A stretch of DNA of 64,000 bases from Capsulimonadaceae bacterium. GTDB taxonomy: Bacteria; Armatimonadota; Armatimonadia; Armatimonadales; Capsulimonadaceae. Positions 18,064 to 24,834 of the stretch are shown piece after piece. The DNA lies in contig OZ244065.1 in assembly GCA_965215505.1 (NCBI GenBank), forward strand, positions 1,664,001 through 1,728,000, read 5' to 3'. Each line of letters opens with the position of its first letter. Position 1 is the stretch's first letter. The notes beneath the pieces were generated by a model. It was given only the letters and a program-made list of their open reading frames with translations. It searched no databases and was not told where the DNA came from. The translations under genes and the position numbers were made by a program.

Positions 18064-18954
18064 ATGGCGGAAGAGCAGAAGTCAACATGGAAGACCAAGG
18101 TGGGTCTGGCCGAGATGCTCAAGGGCGGCGTCATCATGGACGTCGTGAACCCGGAGCAGGCGATCATCGCCGAGGAAGCCGGCGCGACGGCGGTGATGGC
18201 CTTGGAGCGCGTGCCCGCCGACATCCGGCGCGACGGCGGCGTGGCGCGGATGTCCGACCCGAAGATGATTAAGGGCATCATGGACGTCGTGACCATCCCG
18301 GTCATGGCGAAGGCCCGGATTGGGCACTACGTCGAGGCGCAGATATTGGAGGCCCTGGGCGTGGACTTCGTGGACGAGTCCGAGGTGCTGACGCCCGCCG
18401 ATGACGCCTTCCACATCTCAAAGCACGACTTCAAAGTCCCCTTCGTCTGCGGCTGCCGCGATCTGGGCGAGGCCCTGCGGCGCATCGGCGAGGGCGCTTC
18501 CATGATTCGCACCAAGGGCGAGGCCGGCTCGGGCAACATCGTGGAGGCAGTCCGGCACATGCGGACCGTGCTGGGCGGCGTCCGCCGCATCCAGGCCATG
18601 CCGTTTGAAGAGCTGATGACCGAGGCCAAGAACCTGGGCGCTCCGTATGAGCTGGTCGTCGAGATCCACCGGACCGGCAAGCTGCCCGTGCCGAACTTCA
18701 GCGCGGGCGGCATCGCCACCCCCGCCGACGCGGCCCTGATGCGCCAGATGGGCGCGGAAGCGGTCTTTGTCGGGTCCGGCATCTTCAAATCCGGCGACCC
18801 CAAGCGGCGCGCACGGGCAATGGTGGACGCCTGCACCCACTACGACAACCCGATGATGCTGGCCGAAATCTCTAACGACATCGGCGAGCCGATGGTGGGC
18901 ATCAACTTGAACTTCGTGCCCAAGGAAGAGATGATGGCGAATCGCGGCTGGTAG
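18064..18954 (+). CDS. pdxS: Pyridoxal 5'-phosphate synthase lyase subunit
   Basis: [33 protein letters not shown]. Confidence 0.97.
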
Positions 18955-18969
18955 CACAGGCCGGCAAAG

Positions 18970-19004
18970 AAAGAGCGGCTGCCCCCTTGGGGCAGCCGCT
19001 CTTT
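18970..19004. terminator. Bidirectional intrinsic terminator between convergent pdxS and rsr
   Basis: AAAGAGCGGCTGCCCC-ctt-GGGGCAGCCGCTCTTT with A/T tracts on both sides. Confidence 0.85.
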
Positions 19005-19026
19005 TGTCGTGTCGGGCCTTGCCATG

Positions 19027-20628
19027 TCAGGCGACCGCGAAGTCGCTCATGACGTTCGGCGTTGCGGTCGAGAACCCGACCACGTCCATCATGCCCGCGT
19101 CGTCGGGGTCGGCGATGGTGAATTTATTGGACACCATGCCGCAGACGATCAGCTTGGCCGGGATGCCCATGCGCTCCCGGTACAACCGCAGGGCCTGGAC
19201 CGGCTGGATGTTCCCCGCCCACGTCTCCGAGTCGGTGTAGACGACGAACACGTCCGCTTCGACCTTGTTCTTCAGCGCCCAGACCATCGGCAGGGCGCAG
19301 TCGGTCCCGGCGAAGGGCAGACCGCTGACCGTCTTCAGCACGTCGTCGAGCCGCTGGCGCGGGCTGATATTCAGCGGCATGAACGTCGTCGAGAACGCCA
19401 TGAACCGGTGACGCGCCTCGGTCGCCGCCGTGATCAGGGCCATCGCCGCGCTGGCGACGCGCGGCGTCAGGCCCGGAACGCCCGCGATCTGACCGCCCTC
19501 CATCGAGCCGGACACGTCCAGGGCGAGCAGCCACCGCTGGCCGGTCGGCGTGACGTTGCCGAACGAGGCGTAGAACGCCGCGTCCAGGGCGTCCACGATG
19601 GCGGGGACCGGCGTCCAGCTATTCCCACCGCGCTCGCCATGCCCCTGGGCATAGGTCTTCAGGGCAGACAGGACCTGAATCGGATGGACCCGCGCCTTCC
19701 GCAGACGCGCCCCGTCGGTGATCTGCGCGGCCACCTTCTGAGTCTCCGGCCCCATCGAAGTGAGCAGGCCCACCCGCGTCAGGGTCGCCAGGTTGCGGAT
19801 GAGCGCCGTCATCGGCATCTCCTCCAGCAAGGCCTCCCAGACGAACGGGTCGGTGAGCCACTGCGTCGGGACCGCCTCACGCGGCAGCCGGTACTCGCGA
19901 ACGAGTGCGGCGACCTGCGCCGCCGTCTCTGCCGTTTTGACCCGCTCCGATGCCCAGACCAGCCGCAGGGCCGGGTCCGGGTGGGGCATCTCGCCGACCG
20001 ACTCCCACCCCTGGGTCAGCCAGTGGTAGAGCGCGAAGTGCTGCTCCGTCGCGGGCTTCGGGTGCGAGAGCCGCAGCAGGTCGCGGTGGCTCCAGCCGTC
20101 CCGCTGCCCGTACTTGACCGCCTGGTAGGCCAGCCTGTCGGCGGGCATCTGGGCGTACCAGTTGCCGACCGCCTGCCGCAGCCCGCGGCCCCAGCCGCGC
20201 ATCCCGTCCACATACTGCGCGAAGTGGAACAGGTGCGTCCCGATCCGTGCCACGACCGGCAGGGCCGCCAGCGCCTTCCGGCGCGTGTCCTCGTCGCCGA
20301 GTGCAGCGCACATGGCGAGTGCGAACAGGGCGGGGTCGTTCTTCGGCGCGCGCCCGGCCTCGGACACGGCGACGATCTCGCGTACGACGCGCGGGCCGTC
20401 CGCGCCGATGCACCGCTTGACCGCCTCGGCGTTCTCCAGCGTCAGGGTCGTCTCGCCCGCGTAGAACGAGCCGCCCTCGGTTCCCAGCGCGAGGAATCGT
20501 GCCAGCCGCGTCCAGTCGTCCACGGCGAAGGTGAACCCGCCCGCGCTGTTCGCGACCTGGGCCGAGCCGGGGATGGGCCGGCTCTGCGGCGTCACTTTCT
20601 TGTTAAAAACCGTCTTCAAGTACGTCAT
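19027..20628 (-). CDS. rsr: Ro60/TROVE-domain RNA-binding protein (Rsr)
   Basis: NSAGGF..VDDWTRLARFLALGTEGGSFY, KYGQRDGWSHRDLLRLSHP, MPMTALIRNL, vWA MIDAS LDVSGSM, TDSETW; ATG at 20628 follows an AAAGGAG RBS. Confidence 0.96.
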   Translation of the reverse strand: MTYLKTVFNKKVTPQSRPIPGSAQVANSAGGFTFAVDDWTRLARFLALGTEGGSFYAGETTLTLENAEAVKRCIGADGPRVVREIVAVSEAGRAPKNDPALFALAMCAALGDEDTRRKALAALPVVARIGTHLFHFAQYVDGMRGWGRGLRQAVGNWYAQMPADRLAYQAVKYGQRDGWSHRDLLRLSHPKPATEQHFALYHWLTQGWESVGEMPHPDPALRLVWASERVKTAETAAQVAALVREYRLPREAVPTQWLTDPFVWEALLEEMPMTALIRNLATLTRVGLLTSMGPETQKVAAQITDGARLRKARVHPIQVLSALKTYAQGHGERGGNSWTPVPAIVDALDAAFYASFGNVTPTGQRWLLALDVSGSMEGGQIAGVPGLTPRVASAAMALITAATEARHRFMAFSTTFMPLNISPRQRLDDVLKTVSGLPFAGTDCALPMVWALKNKVEADVFVVYTDSETWAGNIQPVQALRLYRERMGIPAKLIVCGMVSNKFTIADPDDAGMMDVVGFSTATPNVMSDFAVA

Positions 20629-20640
20629 CGTCTTTGTCTC

Positions 20641-20662
20641 CTTTCGGCCCCAGTGGGGCAAG
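20641..20662 (-). promoter_or_regulatory. Ro-binding-site-like hairpin overlapping the rsr Shine-Dalgarno
   Basis: RNA CUUGCCCC-acu-GGGGCCGAAAG runs into GAG of the SD; same motif as in the Y RNAs. Confidence 0.6.
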
Positions 20663-20665
20663 TGC

Positions 20666-20744
20666 CGGACAGGCAAGGGGTGCGCCTGGGTGTTGGTTTT
20701 CTGGTTTCAAGAAGAGTGTTAACCCAAACACTTCGGCCCGTCCG
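20666..20744 (-). ncRNA. Y RNA, linear type (unit A)
   Basis: 5' CGGACGGGCCGAAG-UGUUUGGGUUAAC...CUUGCCUGUCCG 3'; the termini base-pair. Confidence 0.8.
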
Positions 20745-20762
20745 TGTCACAGTGTCACGATC

Positions 20763-20909
20763 TGAAGAGCGGCAGGACTTGCACCTGCACTGCCTCTCGG
20801 CAACGCCGTCCCTGATAACCGTTATCCTGCGGCCTGCAAGCGGGCAAAGGTCGGTAACGGGAATGCCTTGCGGCCACGACGCGCGTCTGCTGATTTCGCC
20901 ACGCTCTCC
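20763..20909 (-). ncRNA. YrlA-like tRNA-mimic Y RNA (unit B)
   Basis: Acceptor GGAGAGCG/CGCUCUUC, Leu-like D arm UGGCGAAAUCAGCAGACGCG, T arm GCAGG-UGCAAGU-CCUGC, internal UUUGCCCGC..GCAGGCCGCAG..GGUUAUC. Confidence 0.8.
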
Positions 20910-20957
20910 ATCGTTGGTTCAGGCCATGGCCTGAACCGGCTCCGTCGTCAGTATGCA

Positions 20958-21095
20958 TGAAGAGCGGCAGGAGTCGAACCTGCTGCCTCCGGGGTGAAAG
21001 ATAACCGTTTTCCTACGGCCCGCATCGCAGGCAAGTGGCGGAAACGGGAACCGCCTTGCGGCGACCCGGTGAGCTGCCGTTGCTCCACACTCTTC
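20958..21095 (-). ncRNA. YrlA-like tRNA-mimic Y RNA (unit C)
   Basis: Acceptor GAAGAGUG/CGCUCUUC, D arm GAGC-AACGGCA-GCUC, T arm GCAGG-UUCGACU-CCUGC, internal CUUGCCUGC..GCGGGCCGUAG..GGUUAUC. Confidence 0.82.
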
Positions 21096-21100
21096 ATCGC

Positions 21101-21218
21101 TGGCTCAGGCAAGGTGATTGCCTACGGGTGTCACCCCGTACTGGAGTTCATCGCTCCAGCGCTTTGCTCTTGGTCAGGGTGCGATCACTCGATAACCCGT
21201 ATGCTGCGGCCCGAGCCA
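21101..21218 (-). ncRNA. Y RNA, linear type with a large multi-hairpin loop (unit D)
   Basis: 5' UGGCUCGGGCCGCAG-CAUACG-GGUUAUC...CUUGCCUGAGCCA 3'. Confidence 0.8.
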
Positions 21219-21235
21219 TTCTTATCCAGTTGTCA

Positions 21236-21344
21236 TGGAGGCGATCGGAGTCGAACCGATGACCGTGTGGTAACCATCTTCCAGCGGCCCGCGAAGCAGG
21301 CAAAAGGCGGCGATGGGTTGCTCTACCTACTGAGCTACGCCCCC
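21236..21344 (-). ncRNA. YrlA-like tRNA-mimic Y RNA (unit E)
   Basis: GGGGGCG-UAGCUCAGUAGGUAGAGC...UUUGCCUGC-uuc-GCGGGCCGCUG..GGUUACC...AUCGG-UUCGACU-CCGAU-CGCCUCCA. Confidence 0.85.
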
Positions 21345-21350
21345 GCCTGT

Positions 21351-21416
21351 GGTTCAGGCAAATGCCGCGCCTGGGGGTAATCTTAACAGGATAACCCAGG
21401 CGCTTCGGCCCGAACC
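21351..21416 (-). ncRNA. Y RNA, minimal linear type (unit F)
   Basis: 5' GGUUCGGGCCGAAG-CGCCUG-GGUUAUC...CCAGGCG..UUUGCCUGAACC 3'. Confidence 0.8.
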
Positions 21417-21442
21417 GGTGTCTCGCTCTTCGTATCCAGTTG

Positions 21443-21567
21443 TGGTGGAGAGCGGGAGGATTCGAACCCCCGACCCCGTCAGTGATAATGATAACCGTCA
21501 TCCAGCGGCCCGCGGGGCAGACAAAGGGCGGAGACGGATCGTGCTCTGCCACTGAGCTACGCTCCCC
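21443..21567 (-). ncRNA. YrlA-like tRNA-mimic Y RNA with encoded CCA (unit G)
   Basis: GGGGAGCG-UAGCUCAGUGGCAGAGC...UUUGUCUGC..GCGGGCCGCUG..GGUUAUC...GGGGG-UUCGAAU-CCUCC-CGCUCUCC-A-CCA. Confidence 0.85.
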
Positions 21568-21630
21568 GTATTCGGCGATCCGCTATTCAGTTATGACCGG
21601 CCCCGCCTGGCAGCAGGGCCGGAAAAGGAC

Positions 21631-21720
21631 GTTCAGGCAAAAGGCGTCCTGGGATCATCCCGTTGCCGGGATTTGGATTCGAACCAGTGTGCCAGATAAC
21701 CCAGGGACTACGGCCCGAAC
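21631..21720 (-). ncRNA. Y RNA, linear type with a T-loop-like hairpin (unit H)
   Basis: 5' GUUCGGGCCGUAG-UCCCUG-GGUUAUC..UGG-UUCGAAU-CCA...UUUGCCUGAAC 3'. Confidence 0.8.
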
Positions 21721-21744
21721 TTCAATCTTCGTCGTGGTCTTCGC

Positions 21745-22077
21745 CTAGAACCGGAAGGCCGCGAGGCAGCCCGCGAGGCAGGCCAGAAGCAGCAGGAGCA
21801 TGAGCGCGTCGGAAACGCGCGACAGGCCCGCGTTGTGGCCCTTGCCATCCCGCTTCGGCTCCGGCGCGGGCGGCGGGGCGAACTCCAGGATGATCAGGTT
21901 GCCGCGCCGCTCGATCACCCGTCCCACGCTCCTGCCGGGGGGCTTCGGGTTACGCTCCGGGGGATGGCCCGTGCGCTCCGCGAAATAGTGGACCAGACAC
22001 AGCGGCGCAGCTGTGTCGCCCCCGCTGTCCCCCACCCCCTGCATGTCTTCGTCGTACTCCGTGATGTCGTATGTCAC
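21745..22077 (-). CDS. Hypothetical protein with a C-terminal hydrophobic helix, first gene after the attenuator
   Basis: GAAGGAGA RBS 5 nt before GTG; C-terminal LMLLLLLACLAGCLAAF. Confidence 0.65.
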   Translation of the reverse strand: MTYDITEYDEDMQGVGDSGGDTAAPLCLVHYFAERTGHPPERNPKPPGRSVGRVIERRGNLIILEFAPPPAPEPKRDGKGHNAGLSRVSDALMLLLLLACLAGCLAAFRF

Positions 22078-22103
22078 TGGTTTCTCCTTCAGGAAAAGCG
22101 TTC

Positions 22104-22160
22104 AAAGAAAAAGACGCCCACCGCTCGGCTTGTGGGCCTTTGCGGTGGGCGTCTCTTTCT
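22104..22160 (-). terminator. Intrinsic terminator (putative attenuator) in the leader of the Y RNA-rsr unit
   Basis: AGACGCCCACCGC / GCGGUGGGCGUCU stem followed by UUUUCUUU on the minus strand. Confidence 0.8.
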
Positions 22161-22186
22161 CACGGGTACACGAGTGTGGTGAGTGT

Positions 22187-22333
22187 CTAAGGGACGAGTC
22201 CTCCGTCAAAGGAAGCAGTCGGGCGCTGGTACTGGGCGTTCACGAGCCACTGCCCACGACCGGCGGGGTCGGACTGGTGGCGCTCGCTGGTTAATGTGCT
22301 AACGTAAATCATGCTGGTCTGCTTCAGTGTCAT
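22187..22333 (-). CDS. Putative 48-aa leader peptide
   Basis: Hand translation MTLKQTSMIYVSTLTSERHQSDPAGRGQWLVNAQYQRPTASFDGGLVP*; AAAGGAG and GAGGA upstream; lies between the promoter and the terminator. Confidence 0.6.
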   Translation of the reverse strand: MTLKQTSMIYVSTLTSERHQSDPAGRGQWLVNAQYQRPTASFDGGLVP

Positions 22334-22370
22334 TGTCCTCGGCTGCTCCTTTCACTAAAATCGGTTGGTG

Positions 22371-22403
22371 CGTATGATACCCATACGTTCAGCGGCTTGT
22401 CAA
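22371..22403 (-). promoter_or_regulatory. Sigma70-type promoter with an overlapping palindrome
   Basis: TTGACA (22403-22398), 18 nt, TATCAT (22379-22374); CGTATG-N5-CATACG at 22371-22387. Confidence 0.7.
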
Positions 22404-22432
22404 GGGGTGGGGCGAAATAGTTTTGCGCGGCC

Positions 22433-23695
22433 TCACAGCTTCGTGCTGCTGTTGAGGAAGGACTGGGCGTAGATGCCGCCGCGGAGGGCATCACTGGCGG
22501 CCTTGGCGAGCGAGGCGGTCGTCTCGCCGGGGTGCAGGGCCACGTCCGCGGGGGTGATCGTCAGCAGCGGCTTGTCGGAGATCAGCACCTGGTCGCCGCT
22601 GGACTCGATTTGGTACATCTGCAAGCCGCCGTCCAGCAGCGTGTTGAAGCGGTCGGCGATGGCCTTGGCCCGGTTCAGGTCCGGGTCGGACAGGGTCGGC
22701 AGGGTGTGGTTGACGAACACGATGTCCTCCCCGCCGCCCGGCGCGGGGTGGACGAGGGCGTGGGGGGCGTCGGTCGCCTCGCGGACGGCGTGTGTGGTGA
22801 TGGGGACGTTCATGGCATCGAGTTCCGCGCGGATCATCCCGACGCGCTCGGTCGTGTAAGGGTGGTCCATTAGGATGCCCAGCTCGACCTTGGGGCTGCG
22901 GGCCTCGATGTCGGCCAGCCGCTGCATGAACGTCATCATGGCGACGGGATTGTAACCCGCCTTCTGCAAGAGGAGGGTGCCGCCATGGTCGGCGTCCGCC
23001 TCGGCGGCCTGGCTGTATTTGGTGTTGAGGATGCCCATCTGCGCGTACTGCGCGCCCGCCGCGAGGTTCGCGATGTCGGTCGTGTTGACGTGGGCAACGA
23101 TTGCGGCCAGCAGACCCGCGATCATCTCGGTGTTCATCTTGGACTGCTCGTGCGACAGCGACTGGATGTGGTGGTGGGCGGCGTGGGTGATCTCGTGGGC
23201 CAGGACGCCGGCCAGCTCGTCGTCGGTGCGGACGAACTTCAGCAAGCCGGAGTTGACGTAGACGTAGCCGCCCGGCAGCGAAAAGGCGTTGACGTCCTTC
23301 TCGTCAATGACGAAGAAGTGCCAGGTGAAGGGGAAGGTCCTGTCGTTGCCGTAGTCGGCGTGATAGGTCGTCGTGTTGGCTATGGCGGCGAGCTTCTGGC
23401 CGATGGCGTTGACTCGGTCCAGAACGGCCTTGTCCTTGACCATCTTGACGGCCTTGTTGACCTGTGCGGAGGCGTCCGCACCCTGCTTTGCCTCGTCGGC
23501 GGCCTGGGCCTTGTCGCGGGCGGACAGAGGCGCGGGCGTCGCCATGGAGAGCGCGCCCGTCGGGGGGAGGCCGGCGGCACGGGCGGACACCCCCCACCCC
23601 AGGCAGGCCAGGGTCGTAAACAGCAGAGGCTTGATGTTCGCGGGGGGCTTGATGTTCGCGGGGGGCTTGATGTTCGCGGGGGGCTTGATGTTCAT
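22433..23695 (-). CDS. M48-family metalloprotease, secreted
   Basis: VNAFSLPGG, ELAGVLAHEITH, EADAD, GYNP, DHP. Confidence 0.9.
   Translation of the reverse strand: MNIKPPANIKPPANIKPPANIKPLLFTTLACLGWGVSARAAGLPPTGALSMATPAPLSARDKAQAADEAKQGADASAQVNKAVKMVKDKAVLDRVNAIGQKLAAIANTTTYHADYGNDRTFPFTWHFFVIDEKDVNAFSLPGGYVYVNSGLLKFVRTDDELAGVLAHEITHAAHHHIQSLSHEQSKMNTEMIAGLLAAIVAHVNTTDIANLAAGAQYAQMGILNTKYSQAAEADADHGGTLLLQKAGYNPVAMMTFMQRLADIEARSPKVELGILMDHPYTTERVGMIRAELDAMNVPITTHAVREATDAPHALVHPAPGGGEDIVFVNHTLPTLSDPDLNRAKAIADRFNTLLDGGLQMYQIESSGDQVLISDKPLLTITPADVALHPGETTASLAKAASDALRGGIYAQSFLNSSTKL
23628..23693. repeat. 18-bp tandem repeat (about 3.7 copies) encoding NIKPPA at the M48 N-terminus
   Basis: GGCTTGATGTTCGCGGGG repeated. 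Confidence 0.92.
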
Positions 23696-23751
23696 GGCAT
23701 GTTTTCCAGATCGCCGACGCATATGCCGGAAGGATATGATATAATGGCGCT

Positions 23752-24834
23752 ATGACCCGTATGTACGTTCTGACGGTTCTTTTCCTGCTCGCGCTCCTGC
23801 ATCCCGTCCGGGCGGACGACACGCTGCCCGCCCTGCTTGGGCAGGCACAGAAGGCCAAGGATGCGGGACAGGTGGAGGAGGCATTGGGCGCGCTGGTCAC
23901 GGCCCGCCGGTCCTATCCGACCTCGAACGAGGCGGCGCGGCGGCTGGAGACGCTGGTCGGAGCGGGCCTGCCGCCGCACCTTCGGAGCGACTGGCTCGGC
24001 GCTGTGCCGGTAGACGCCACCTCTTTGCCTTACGACCTCGGCACCCTTATCGTTCCCAAAACCTACCTGCCGACACACGCCGAGGAGCCTCAGCACCACT
24101 GGTCGTTCGCTAAGGCGGCCTACGTCTACTCTGCGGACGGTCAATCGCTCCGCCTGTTCTGCGCGGTGCATTACCCCACCGACGCGGACGCCGCATTGGC
24201 GGCGCGCATCGCCCGCCTGCTCGCGCTGGCGCACCAGACCTTGACGCGCAGGACCGGATCGGAGGCCGCCAACGGGGCCGTCCCATTCGACGTCTGGCTC
24301 TGCACCGGGGGGCAGAGCGGCGGCGAGCAGTGGCGCGACAACCTGTACCTGTACGACATCGAGACGCCCCGCTCGTCCATCGAGTGGCTGCGCGAGACGG
24401 TCCACGAGTACGCCCACCTCGCCCTGCCCGCCATCGGCGGCTACGAGGCACCCGAGTATTGGGCCAACGGCTACCTCGGCGAGCGGCTCCTGGTGCGCTG
24501 GATGGAGCGCGGACCGGACGGGCCGGCCCATGTCGAGGCGCTGTGGGGCGACTTCAGCGGTGCCCCCAACTTCGACCGGCTCCTGATCGCCCCCCCGCTG
24601 GCGCTCTACAGGAAGATCGGCCCAAGCCCCATCTGGCTGGCGCGCAAGGACGAGGCTGGGATGCGCTATCTGATCGGGCAGGCCTTGACTTTTGACGACA
24701 AGTATGGCGCGTCGCGTCTAGGGGACGCCTTCCGACGGCTGCCCCGCTTCCGCGAGGCGACCGCCAAAGACTTCGCCGCCGCGCTGGCCGAGTCGCTCGC
24801 GGCGGACCCTGCCCACGCCCAGGGCACCCCATGA
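23752..24834 (+). CDS. Secreted hypothetical protein with an HExxH zincin-like motif
   Basis: Signal peptide; VHEYAHL. Confidence 0.7.
   Translation: MTRMYVLTVLFLLALLHPVRADDTLPALLGQAQKAKDAGQVEEALGALVTARRSYPTSNEAARRLETLVGAGLPPHLRSDWLGAVPVDATSLPYDLGTLIVPKTYLPTHAEEPQHHWSFAKAAYVYSADGQSLRLFCAVHYPTDADAALAARIARLLALAHQTLTRRTGSEAANGAVPFDVWLCTGGQSGGEQWRDNLYLYDIETPRSSIEWLRETVHEYAHLALPAIGGYEAPEYWANGYLGERLLVRWMERGPDGPAHVEALWGDFSGAPNFDRLLIAPPLALYRKIGPSPIWLARKDEAGMRYLIGQALTFDDKYGASRLGDAFRRLPRFREATAKDFAAALAESLAADPAHAQGTP

Follow-up and report, generated by a model that had tools for sequence, protein, structure and literature searches.

A conserved leader carrying a candidate ribosome-dependent transcription attenuator precedes the Ro60/Y RNA operon of Capsulimonadaceae

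We analysed a 64,000-nucleotide stretch of contig OZ244065.1 from a Capsulimonadaceae bacterium (hereafter the window; coordinates are window positions, and features lie on the minus strand unless otherwise stated), in which a leader of about 300 nt precedes, in this order, a gene for a 110-residue membrane protein, an array of Y-RNA-like modules and rsr, the gene for a Ro60 orthologue. Comparison with related genomes indicates that the leader is a conserved element of Capsulimonadaceae. The locus can be described as a leader-ORF (open reading frame) transcription attenuator of a known kind with a new leader family and an unusual cargo, a description that the sequence data support in part, the regulation itself being predicted. 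On balance, and by a narrow measure, the evidence leans towards a ribosome-dependent, whiB7-like attenuator that senses translation. To our knowledge, the control of Ro60 and Y RNA expression is known only from the enteric RtcR/sigma-54 operon and from UV induction in Deinococcus. Our literature searches turned up no account of rsr or Y RNAs being controlled by a leader peptide or by attenuation, and nothing on Ro60 in Armatimonadota.

Results

Anatomy of the leader

The leader begins at a sigma-70-type promoter (22403..22374) in which TTGACA (22403-22398) and TATCAT (22379-22374) are separated by an 18-nt spacer, with 11 of 12 consensus matches. Three promoter-like sites were found in 18900-23900, of which this is the only one on the minus strand; shuffled sequences gave a mean of 0.6. 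Next comes a Shine-Dalgarno (SD) sequence, GAAAGGAG (22353-22346), which lies in a block that is invariant in alignment A1, and then the leader ORF (22187..22333), which starts with the ATG at 22333, runs for 48 codons, encodes MTLKQTSMIYVSTLTSERHQSDPAGRGQWLVNAQYQRPTASFDGGLVP* and ends in Pro-TAG at 22189-22187. Between the stop codon and the terminator lies a small spacer hairpin, CUCAC...GUGAG (22159..22183). The intrinsic terminator itself (22104..22158) consists of a stem of about 20 bp, GAGACGCCCACCGC...GCGGUGGGCGUCUC, with a conserved inner GGC/GCC clamp, followed by UUUUUCUUU. About 15 nt separate its U tract from the next ribosome-binding site (RBS), GAAGGAGA at 22090-22083, which belongs to the 110-residue gene. 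A previous reading made from the sequence alone (the sequence-only reading) had listed a promoter, an RBS, a 48-codon ORF, a hairpin with a U tract and a further RBS, and all of these are present, on the minus strand, at the positions that it gave.

Transcripts that stop at the terminator would be about 270 nt long. The whole leader folds with a z score of -3.9, and none of 100 shuffled sequences folds as well; the terminator hairpin alone amounts to -35.9 to -41 kcal/mol. Our terminator scan missed this hairpin because its loop is longer than 8 nt.

Two other roles for the hairpin were rejected. It is not a bidirectional terminator for a plus-strand gene, since no credible plus-strand gene ends at it. 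Termination of the upstream gene for an M48 peptidase was rejected as its main role, given that a strong, conserved promoter stands between that gene and the leader; in addition, the M48 gene is followed by a hairpin of its own in G011 and G012, and G006, G009 and G015 have the leader with no M48 neighbour. The M48 gene (22433-23722, minus strand) encodes a BepA/LoiP-like protein. At its 5' end (window positions 23636-23695), three to four tandem copies of an 18-nt unit, GGGGGGCTTGATGTTCGC (plus strand), give rise to a repeated NIKPPA stretch at the N-terminus of the protease.

The leader recurs throughout the family

The relatives sampled were 23 genomes of the same genus and 17 others, the present genome being designated G000. 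A DNA match to the leader was obtained in 16/23 same-genus genomes and in 0/17 of the others, and a match to the 110-residue protein in 20/23 and 0/17; Rsr was matched in 13/23 (one of them, G022, retaining a C-terminal remnant only) and in 10/17. Upstream of every homologue of the 110-residue gene in the genus (21/21 genomes including this one) we found the same series of promoter, SD, small ORF, hairpin, T tract and RBS. A covariance model, R1, was built from the end of the ORF through the terminator and searched against the genomes. It added G009, where the element lies at a contig end, and G058, G061, G062, G066 and G067; the last five together with G024 make six genomes from four other genera of Capsulimonadaceae that carry the leader. 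Two further genomes, G059 and G070, contain looser look-alikes (promoter, small ORF and hairpin with T tract) that R1 does not detect. When metagenomes were scanned with the 110-residue family, 18 of the 19 loci obtained had an upstream R1 match, TTGACA, an SD and an open ORF of 40-47 codons.

The total came to 48 leader copies, 30 from genomes and 18 from metagenome contigs. TTGACA precedes the leader SD in every one of the 18 metagenome copies and in 29/30 genome copies, the exception being G058 with TTAGACA; the SD and ATG are kept in 48/48. Since the arrangement recurs in every one of the 48 related copies examined, it goes beyond chance.

By R1 the element is single-copy in this genome. 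Three other matches (E > 0.01) were rejected as paralogous leaders: the antisense strand of this hairpin accounts for one, and the two that we read are terminators of tRNA genes. In the sister family f2, two R1 matches that were read (G026, G031) turned out to be plain gene-end terminators. Four weaker matches occur in the f2 genomes G027, G034, G047 and G052, those in G027 and G034 lying off the rsr contig, and a further match occurs in the f1 genome G064. No leader was found upstream of rsr in f2 in the four genomes that were read (G026, G027, G028 and G034), five others having been scanned for motifs only. A search of Rfam returned no family matching the leader element.

The leader SD is paired within a covarying helix

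The RNAalifold consensus on 21 leaders consists of the terminator and a long-range helix, P1, in which the leader SD block pairs with a segment of the ORF that ends about 15 nt before the stop codon. In this genome the 5' strand of P1 is GUGAAAGGAGCAGCCG (22340..22355), which includes the leader SD and is paired by RNAalifold with columns 167-175. The 3' strand, an anti-SD lying within the leader ORF, is CGACUGCUUCCUUUGAC (22205..22221); 93.5% of its cells are paired, and a C-G pair has become U-A in G011. Taken together on alignment A1, P1 and the terminator pair in 96.2% of cells, as against 35-60% for slid controls, and 15 cells have changed on both sides, a number reached by 0/500 shuffles. 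The terminator on alignment A5 pairs in 98.4% of cells and likewise has 15 cells with two-sided changes that 0/500 shuffles reach. Its inner clamp, AGGC...GCC, is almost invariant; the U tracts are weaker in G007 and G015.

Duplex energies agree with this picture of P1. The SD:anti-SD duplex is -14 kcal/mol or stronger in 27/30 leaders, and control duplexes formed across genera are weaker than each leader's own pair, as in G058, where the native pair has -20.2 and the crossed pairs -12.3 and -13.0 kcal/mol. Both strands have changed together in the diverged genera. When transcripts were truncated before the 3' arm of the terminator and then folded, P1 was present in the minimum free energy (MFE) structure of 26/30 copies. 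P1 and the terminator are under selection as RNA.

Two smaller hairpins also covary. One lies in the middle of the ORF (CGACC-CCGCC-GGUCG, 22257..22271), with two-sided changes in 3/5 pairs and 73% of cells paired, and its 3' arm continues into a GUGGGC motif at 22257-22252. The other is the spacer hairpin, with two-sided changes in 4/5 pairs and 71% of cells paired.

The frame stays open while the peptide drifts

If the ORF acts as a translated regulatory leader, its frame should be preserved while its peptide is free to change, and this is the pattern we found. The ORF is open in 48/48 copies at lengths of 28-73 codons, and its stop codon keeps a fixed position relative to the terminator. 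Its N-terminal half cannot be aligned, and insertions and deletions comprise whole codons; the other two frames carry stops in 23/24 cases (first 12 loci). Across 13 related, non-independent pairs the median dN/dS was 0.63 for the leader versus 0.27 for the adjacent 110-residue gene, with values below 1 in 12/13 pairs. Synonymous divergence was 0.09-0.38 in the last 12 leader codons as compared with 0.26-0.74 in the rest of the leader. The C-terminal block reads PAASFDGGLV here and F-x-G-G family-wide, and in the 30 genome copies the first glycine codon of this motif is nearly always GGA, which accounts for 9% of glycine codons in the long ORFs of the window. A second conserved block, ERFQSD..GR, overlaps the covarying mid-ORF hairpin. 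The Pro-UAG ending, to which the sequence-only reading had drawn attention, is present here but not conserved, Pro-stop occurring in just three of the 12 leaders examined first. The peptide matches neither a Pfam nor an NCBIfam family; a search of 5.8 billion proteins returned only the peptide itself, and the ESM Atlas gave no usable match.

The open frame, the drifting N-terminus, the dN/dS values, the synonymous conservation, the overlap with a hairpin and the absence of peptide relatives in these searches together argue that selection bears on translation of the ORF and on RNA structure, and less on the peptide. The conservation of F-x-G-G nevertheless makes a role for the peptide itself possible. 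We considered a rival reading in which the 48 residues make up a functional micro-protein, perhaps one that partners the 110-residue protein, and the hairpin is a leaky terminator which sets a fixed high-to-low expression ratio with no sensing of translation. The two conserved peptide blocks (ERFQSD in most of the genus) would fit such a gene, as would dN/dS below 1 in nearly all pairs and an antiterminator that is weak and lacks covariation (see below). The N-terminal half, however, varies freely in both sequence and length; conservation of the C-terminal codons extends to their synonymous sites and to the rare GGA, a pattern indicative of constraint on the RNA and not on the peptide, and the ERFQSD block coincides with a covarying hairpin. 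A covarying helix moreover sequesters the SD of the supposed gene, the leader stands directly before non-coding Y RNAs in three genomes, and neither a homologue nor a family of the peptide was found. We regard a micro-protein with a leaky terminator as unlikely.

The leader precedes a membrane-protein gene and a Ro60/Y RNA module

According to the sequence-only reading, the element gates the Y RNA-rsr unit. A conserved cis element does stand at this position; the first gene that it would gate here, which that reading had left unnamed, encodes the 110-residue membrane protein (GTG 22077 to TAG 21745; 21745..22090 with its RBS). The order leader, 110-residue gene, Y array and rsr is found on one contig in 15 genomes (13 of the same genus, including G000, together with G061 and G062). 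In G024, G066 and G067, from two other genera, the leader and terminator lie directly before the Y array and rsr, with no 110-residue gene.

Rsr was matched in 22/39 family genomes, or 21 when the G022 remnant is set aside. The sequence-only reading had called for a search for an upstream ORF plus terminator before rsr in relatives, and such a leader is present on the same contig in 18/21 genomes. Of the other three, G059 and G070 have the look-alikes described above, and the G060 contig, which begins within the Y array, does not reach the upstream region. Judged by gene order, the leader gates the Ro module wherever this module exists in Capsulimonadaceae; by the same token it is equally tied to the 110-residue gene and survives without Ro. 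Because it is kept with the 110-residue gene in genomes where no rsr was found, the leader is not Ro-specific.

The 110-residue protein has 103 relatives, all unnamed and restricted to the lineage, and matches no Pfam family. Invariant PLCL.HY and GNL(I/L)ILEF motifs characterize it, together with a linker rich in Pro and a C-terminal membrane helix whose last residues are AAFRF. An AlphaFold2 model (mean pLDDT 63.5) shows only a beta hairpin (residues 52-66) and a helix (83-109), and is confident for the helix only. The product is predicted to be a tail-anchored membrane protein, and its place behind the same leader suggests that it is either co-regulated with the Ro module as a partner or carried in its stead as an alternative cargo.

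The array of Y-RNA-like and tRNA-like modules (approximate span 20650..21740) was recognised from Rfam matches and recurrent stem motifs. Its first module starts about 25 nt after the stop codon of the 110-residue gene; 15-70 nt is usual in the genus, and the distance is somewhat greater in G013 and G016. Rfam tRNA matches lie at 21236-21344 and 21447-21566, and there are sub-threshold matches to RF01656, a nematode sRNA family. The stem motifs GGGCCG..GGTTATC and TTGCCTG recur within the array, and in the relatives they are confined to rsr-bearing genomes save for one module in G021. The rsr gene (19027..20628) encodes a 533-residue Ro60 orthologue (Pfam TROVE 1e-46, vWA_Ro60 2e-66) that scores 603 bits against the NCBIfam Rsr model, under the equivalog cut-off of 900. 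A Ro60/Y RNA module comprises a protein with TROVE and vWA Ro60 domains and adjoining Y RNAs that bear a Ro-binding stem and a tRNA-like domain, and the locus fits this description. A hairpin with a T tract, AAAAGAGCGGCUGCCCC...GGGGCAGCCGCUCUUUCUUU (18968..19012), was read directly 3' of rsr and is likely the end of the operon.

Several individual loci deserve description. The Y module at 21447-21566 (minus strand) is tRNA-like, with an acceptor stem, D arm, T arm and CCA, and Ro-binding stem motifs (TTTGTCTG ... GGGCCG..GGTTATC) replace the anticodon arm; it scores 38.8 bits as an Rfam tRNA and is tmRNA-like below threshold. Outside the window, at contig positions ~5953100-5953350 (minus strand) of the same genome, we noted a sigma-70-like promoter, a tRNA gene flanked by GUUCGGGCCG... 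and ...GGCCGCCUGAAC, and a terminator. These flanks are Y-RNA lower-stem sequences. The locus, at a distance of some 5 kb from the second RtcB match, possibly represents an additional Y-like tRNA chimera that is separate from rsr. In G021, a one-contig genome in which no rsr was found, a single Y-RNA-like module, GCTCGGGCCG...GGGTTATC, lies about 70 nt after the stop codon of the 110-residue gene. In G022 the last ~120 residues of Rsr (aa 414-533) are encoded directly behind the 110-residue gene, which looks like a deletion of the Y array and most of rsr.

For the operon of an RNA-binding ribonucleoprotein (RNP), another reading is that the leader responds to a factor and not primarily to the ribosome. 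A putative trans factor such as Rsr, an RNA chaperone or a tRNA-like Y RNA could bind P1, the spacer hairpin or the conserved apex of the terminator and decide on termination, translation of the ORF being secondary. Such feedback would be natural for the operon of an RNA-binding RNP, the RNA is unusually conserved for a plain terminator, clamp included, and P1 and the two further hairpins covary. A purely factor-binding leader would not require an ORF that is open in 48/48 copies, however, and the leader, which has no counterpart in Rfam, is kept in genomes in which we found neither rsr nor Y RNAs; we hold control by a trans factor to be distinctly improbable.

More improbable still is a reading in which the RNA that ends at the terminator is what the locus serves to make, a self-closed, stable and possibly dual-function small RNA acting elsewhere, while the downstream genes use promoters unrecognised by our scans: although a strong promoter and a strong terminator would yield a discrete RNA of ~270 nt with paired ends, and the Y arrays and rsr of f2, which lack such a leader, need start sites of their own, the gaps from U tract to RBS (~15 nt) and from 110-residue stop codon to first Y module (usually 15-70 nt) leave no room for a promoter, a relaxed scan from 22110 down to 20600 gave only two weak sites, both within the Y array and neither convincing (in line with the sequence-only reading, which saw no other obvious promoter before rsr), and the element always stands upstream of the same cargo in the same orientation.

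A candidate antiterminator at the end of the ORF

An attenuator of the whiB7 kind needs a strand that competes for the terminator. In truncated transcripts, the MFE structure pairs the 5' arm of the terminator with a candidate antiterminator strand, GGAGGACUCGUCCC (22191..22204), located in the last six codons of the ORF. Pairing of the C-rich 5' arm with these codons (GGAGG..CGUC) occurs in 17/21 genus copies, or in 19/30 genome copies by a stricter count, and the ORF-end window is the best partner of the 5' arm in 16/30 leaders. Over 43 distinct sequences this pairing is present in 91.9% of cells versus 35-56% in slid controls. A local CUUCC:GGAGG hairpin, which might serve as an anti-antiterminator, pairs in 86.7% of cells, near its slid controls, and shows no covariation.

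A different pairing had been suggested by the sequence-only reading, in which GUGGGC binds either GCCCA inside the leader (22237-22233) or GCCCAC in the 5' arm of the terminator (22150-22145). These motifs are present, and in this genome GUGGGC is the strongest partner of the 5' arm (GUGGGC:GCCCAC -14.7 versus ORF end -12.4 kcal/mol). The motif is not conserved, and its region of the ORF is the best partner in only 7/30 leaders; we rejected this pairing as the conserved antiterminator.

Discussion

Proposed mechanism

In the mechanism that we propose for a ribosome-dependent attenuator, transcription would proceed from the promoter at 22403 into the leader, and the short ORF would be translated co-transcriptionally. 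A ribosome that stays close behind the polymerase to the end of the ORF would cover the anti-SD segment and the last six codons; with the ORF end covered, the terminator would form, transcription would stop at 22104, and the released leader would close on itself via the SD:anti-SD helix P1. If translation of the leader were slow, stalled or not initiated, P1 would form, and the G-rich end of the ORF (or the mid-ORF G-rich segment) would then be free to hold the C-rich 5' arm of the terminator. With this arm held, more polymerases would read through into the 110-residue gene, the Y array and rsr. After passage of the first ribosome, P1 would in addition keep the leader silent. In the three genomes in which the first regulated products are non-coding RNAs, the output would for this reason have to be transcriptional and not translational. 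Which strand acts as antiterminator, in which direction the switch works and what it responds to are inferred from anatomy and conservation; induction by ribosome stalling, which the sequence-only reading had put forward, may be the signal.

Several observations weigh against this mechanism. Most of them concern the antiterminator. The ORF-end pairing shows no two-sided change in the 43 distinct sequences and does not exceed shuffles; shuffling the ORF end with its composition kept gives about equal pairing in 16/30 leaders (p > 0.05). The gain from the antiterminator, -3.6 to -12.5 kcal/mol (-9.1 here), is small against the -19 to -41 kcal/mol of the terminator. In five sequences the terminator carries a G to A change in its 5' arm for which its 3' arm compensates, and in these sequences the matching antiterminator pair has five unpaired cells. 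The ORF end is a poor partner in five divergent leaders (G061, G062, G066, G067 and G070), in which the pairing is absent. Others concern the peptide. F-x-G-G near the C-terminus is kept in 28/30 genome copies, so that the peptide itself may have a role, and no codon runs or known arrest motif were found in the leader ORFs. The sole compositional signal is an A-rich N-terminal part that is rich in Thr, Ser and Asn. Lastly, the leader and the 110-residue gene occur where no rsr was found in at least seven same-genus genomes, G006, G008 and G021 (95-97% complete, 1-3 contigs) and G007, G015, G019 and G023; G058, which is less complete, like G007 and G015, shows the same combination with no rsr match, and G022 has the rsr remnant only.

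We know of no case in which F-x-G-G acts as an arrest motif. As for the N-terminal signal, Thr makes up 12.2% of the variable parts in the 30 genome copies versus 4.6% in the long ORFs of the window (2.65-fold), and Ser and Asn are enriched as well. This enrichment probably reflects A-rich sequence after the start codon, though the Thr excess could be a hint of a charged tRNA sensed by the leader. Codon-specific sensing was rejected on these grounds, there being no codon runs and the Thr/Ser/Asn excess probably being a matter of A-rich sequence.

Relation to known systems

The trp, leu, his and thr attenuators of enterobacteria combine a leader peptide, alternative pairings and an intrinsic terminator that is read by ribosome position. 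Their leaders have 14-30 codons, among them tandem codons for the amino acid that is sensed, and follow a clear 1:2 / 2:3 / 3:4 helix scheme. The leader described here spans 28-73 codons, lacks codon runs, and its only candidate for a 2:3 helix is weak.

A closer likeness is offered by mycobacterial whiB7, alongside which the amino-acid operon attenuators are cited in PMC10274678. As described there, efficient translation of the whiB7 upstream ORF (uORF) leads to termination, and poor translation leads to an antiterminator and readthrough. The present element shares with it a distal promoter, a fairly long non-repetitive uORF and a rho-independent terminator before the regulated gene, and the logic that we propose is the same. 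The whiB7 uORF is enriched in one amino acid, Ala, and our leader is Thr-rich in its N-terminal part. The two are unrelated in sequence; what stands behind the present leader is a membrane-protein gene and/or a Y array with Ro60 instead of a transcription factor, the covarying helix here sequesters the leader's own SD, and the antiterminator is a candidate.

Co-transcription of Y RNAs with rsr has precedents. In the enteric rsr-yrlBA-rtcBA operon under RtcR/sigma-54, as reported in PMC7790460 and PMC9879122, Y RNAs and rsr are co-transcribed and induced together by RNA or translation stress. The likeness would lie in Y RNAs and rsr forming one transcribed unit. In contrast to the enteric operon, the promoter here is sigma-70-like and control would be exerted by attenuation instead of an enhancer-binding activator. 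The RtcR domain PF06956 had no match in this genome, where a sigma-54 promoter motif was not searched for. RtcB matches lie at 0.25 and 5.95 Mb, outside the window at 1.66-1.73 Mb, so that no rtcB belongs to the same operon. Chen et al. (2014, PMC4201824) report for M. smegmatis that a single precursor is processed into two Y RNAs encoded upstream of rsr, which fits co-transcription at the present locus.

Implications for Ro biology

Tentatively, we suggest that the Ro60/Y-RNA RNP may be coupled to a sensor of how well translation proceeds: a pioneer ribosome moving in step with the polymerase would shut the operon off, and one that lags or fails would allow P1 and the antiterminator to form, switching on the Y RNAs, Ro60 and the tail-anchored protein. 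This proposal is a possibility well short of an expectation. If true, it would be the first case of leader-peptide attenuation of Ro/Y RNA expression, and an attenuator whose first regulated products in some genera are non-coding RNAs. The leader would offer a handle on Ro biology in a poorly studied phylum that can be tested with reporters, and by sensing translation it would directly link the machinery for ribosome and RNA quality control to how ribosomes perform.

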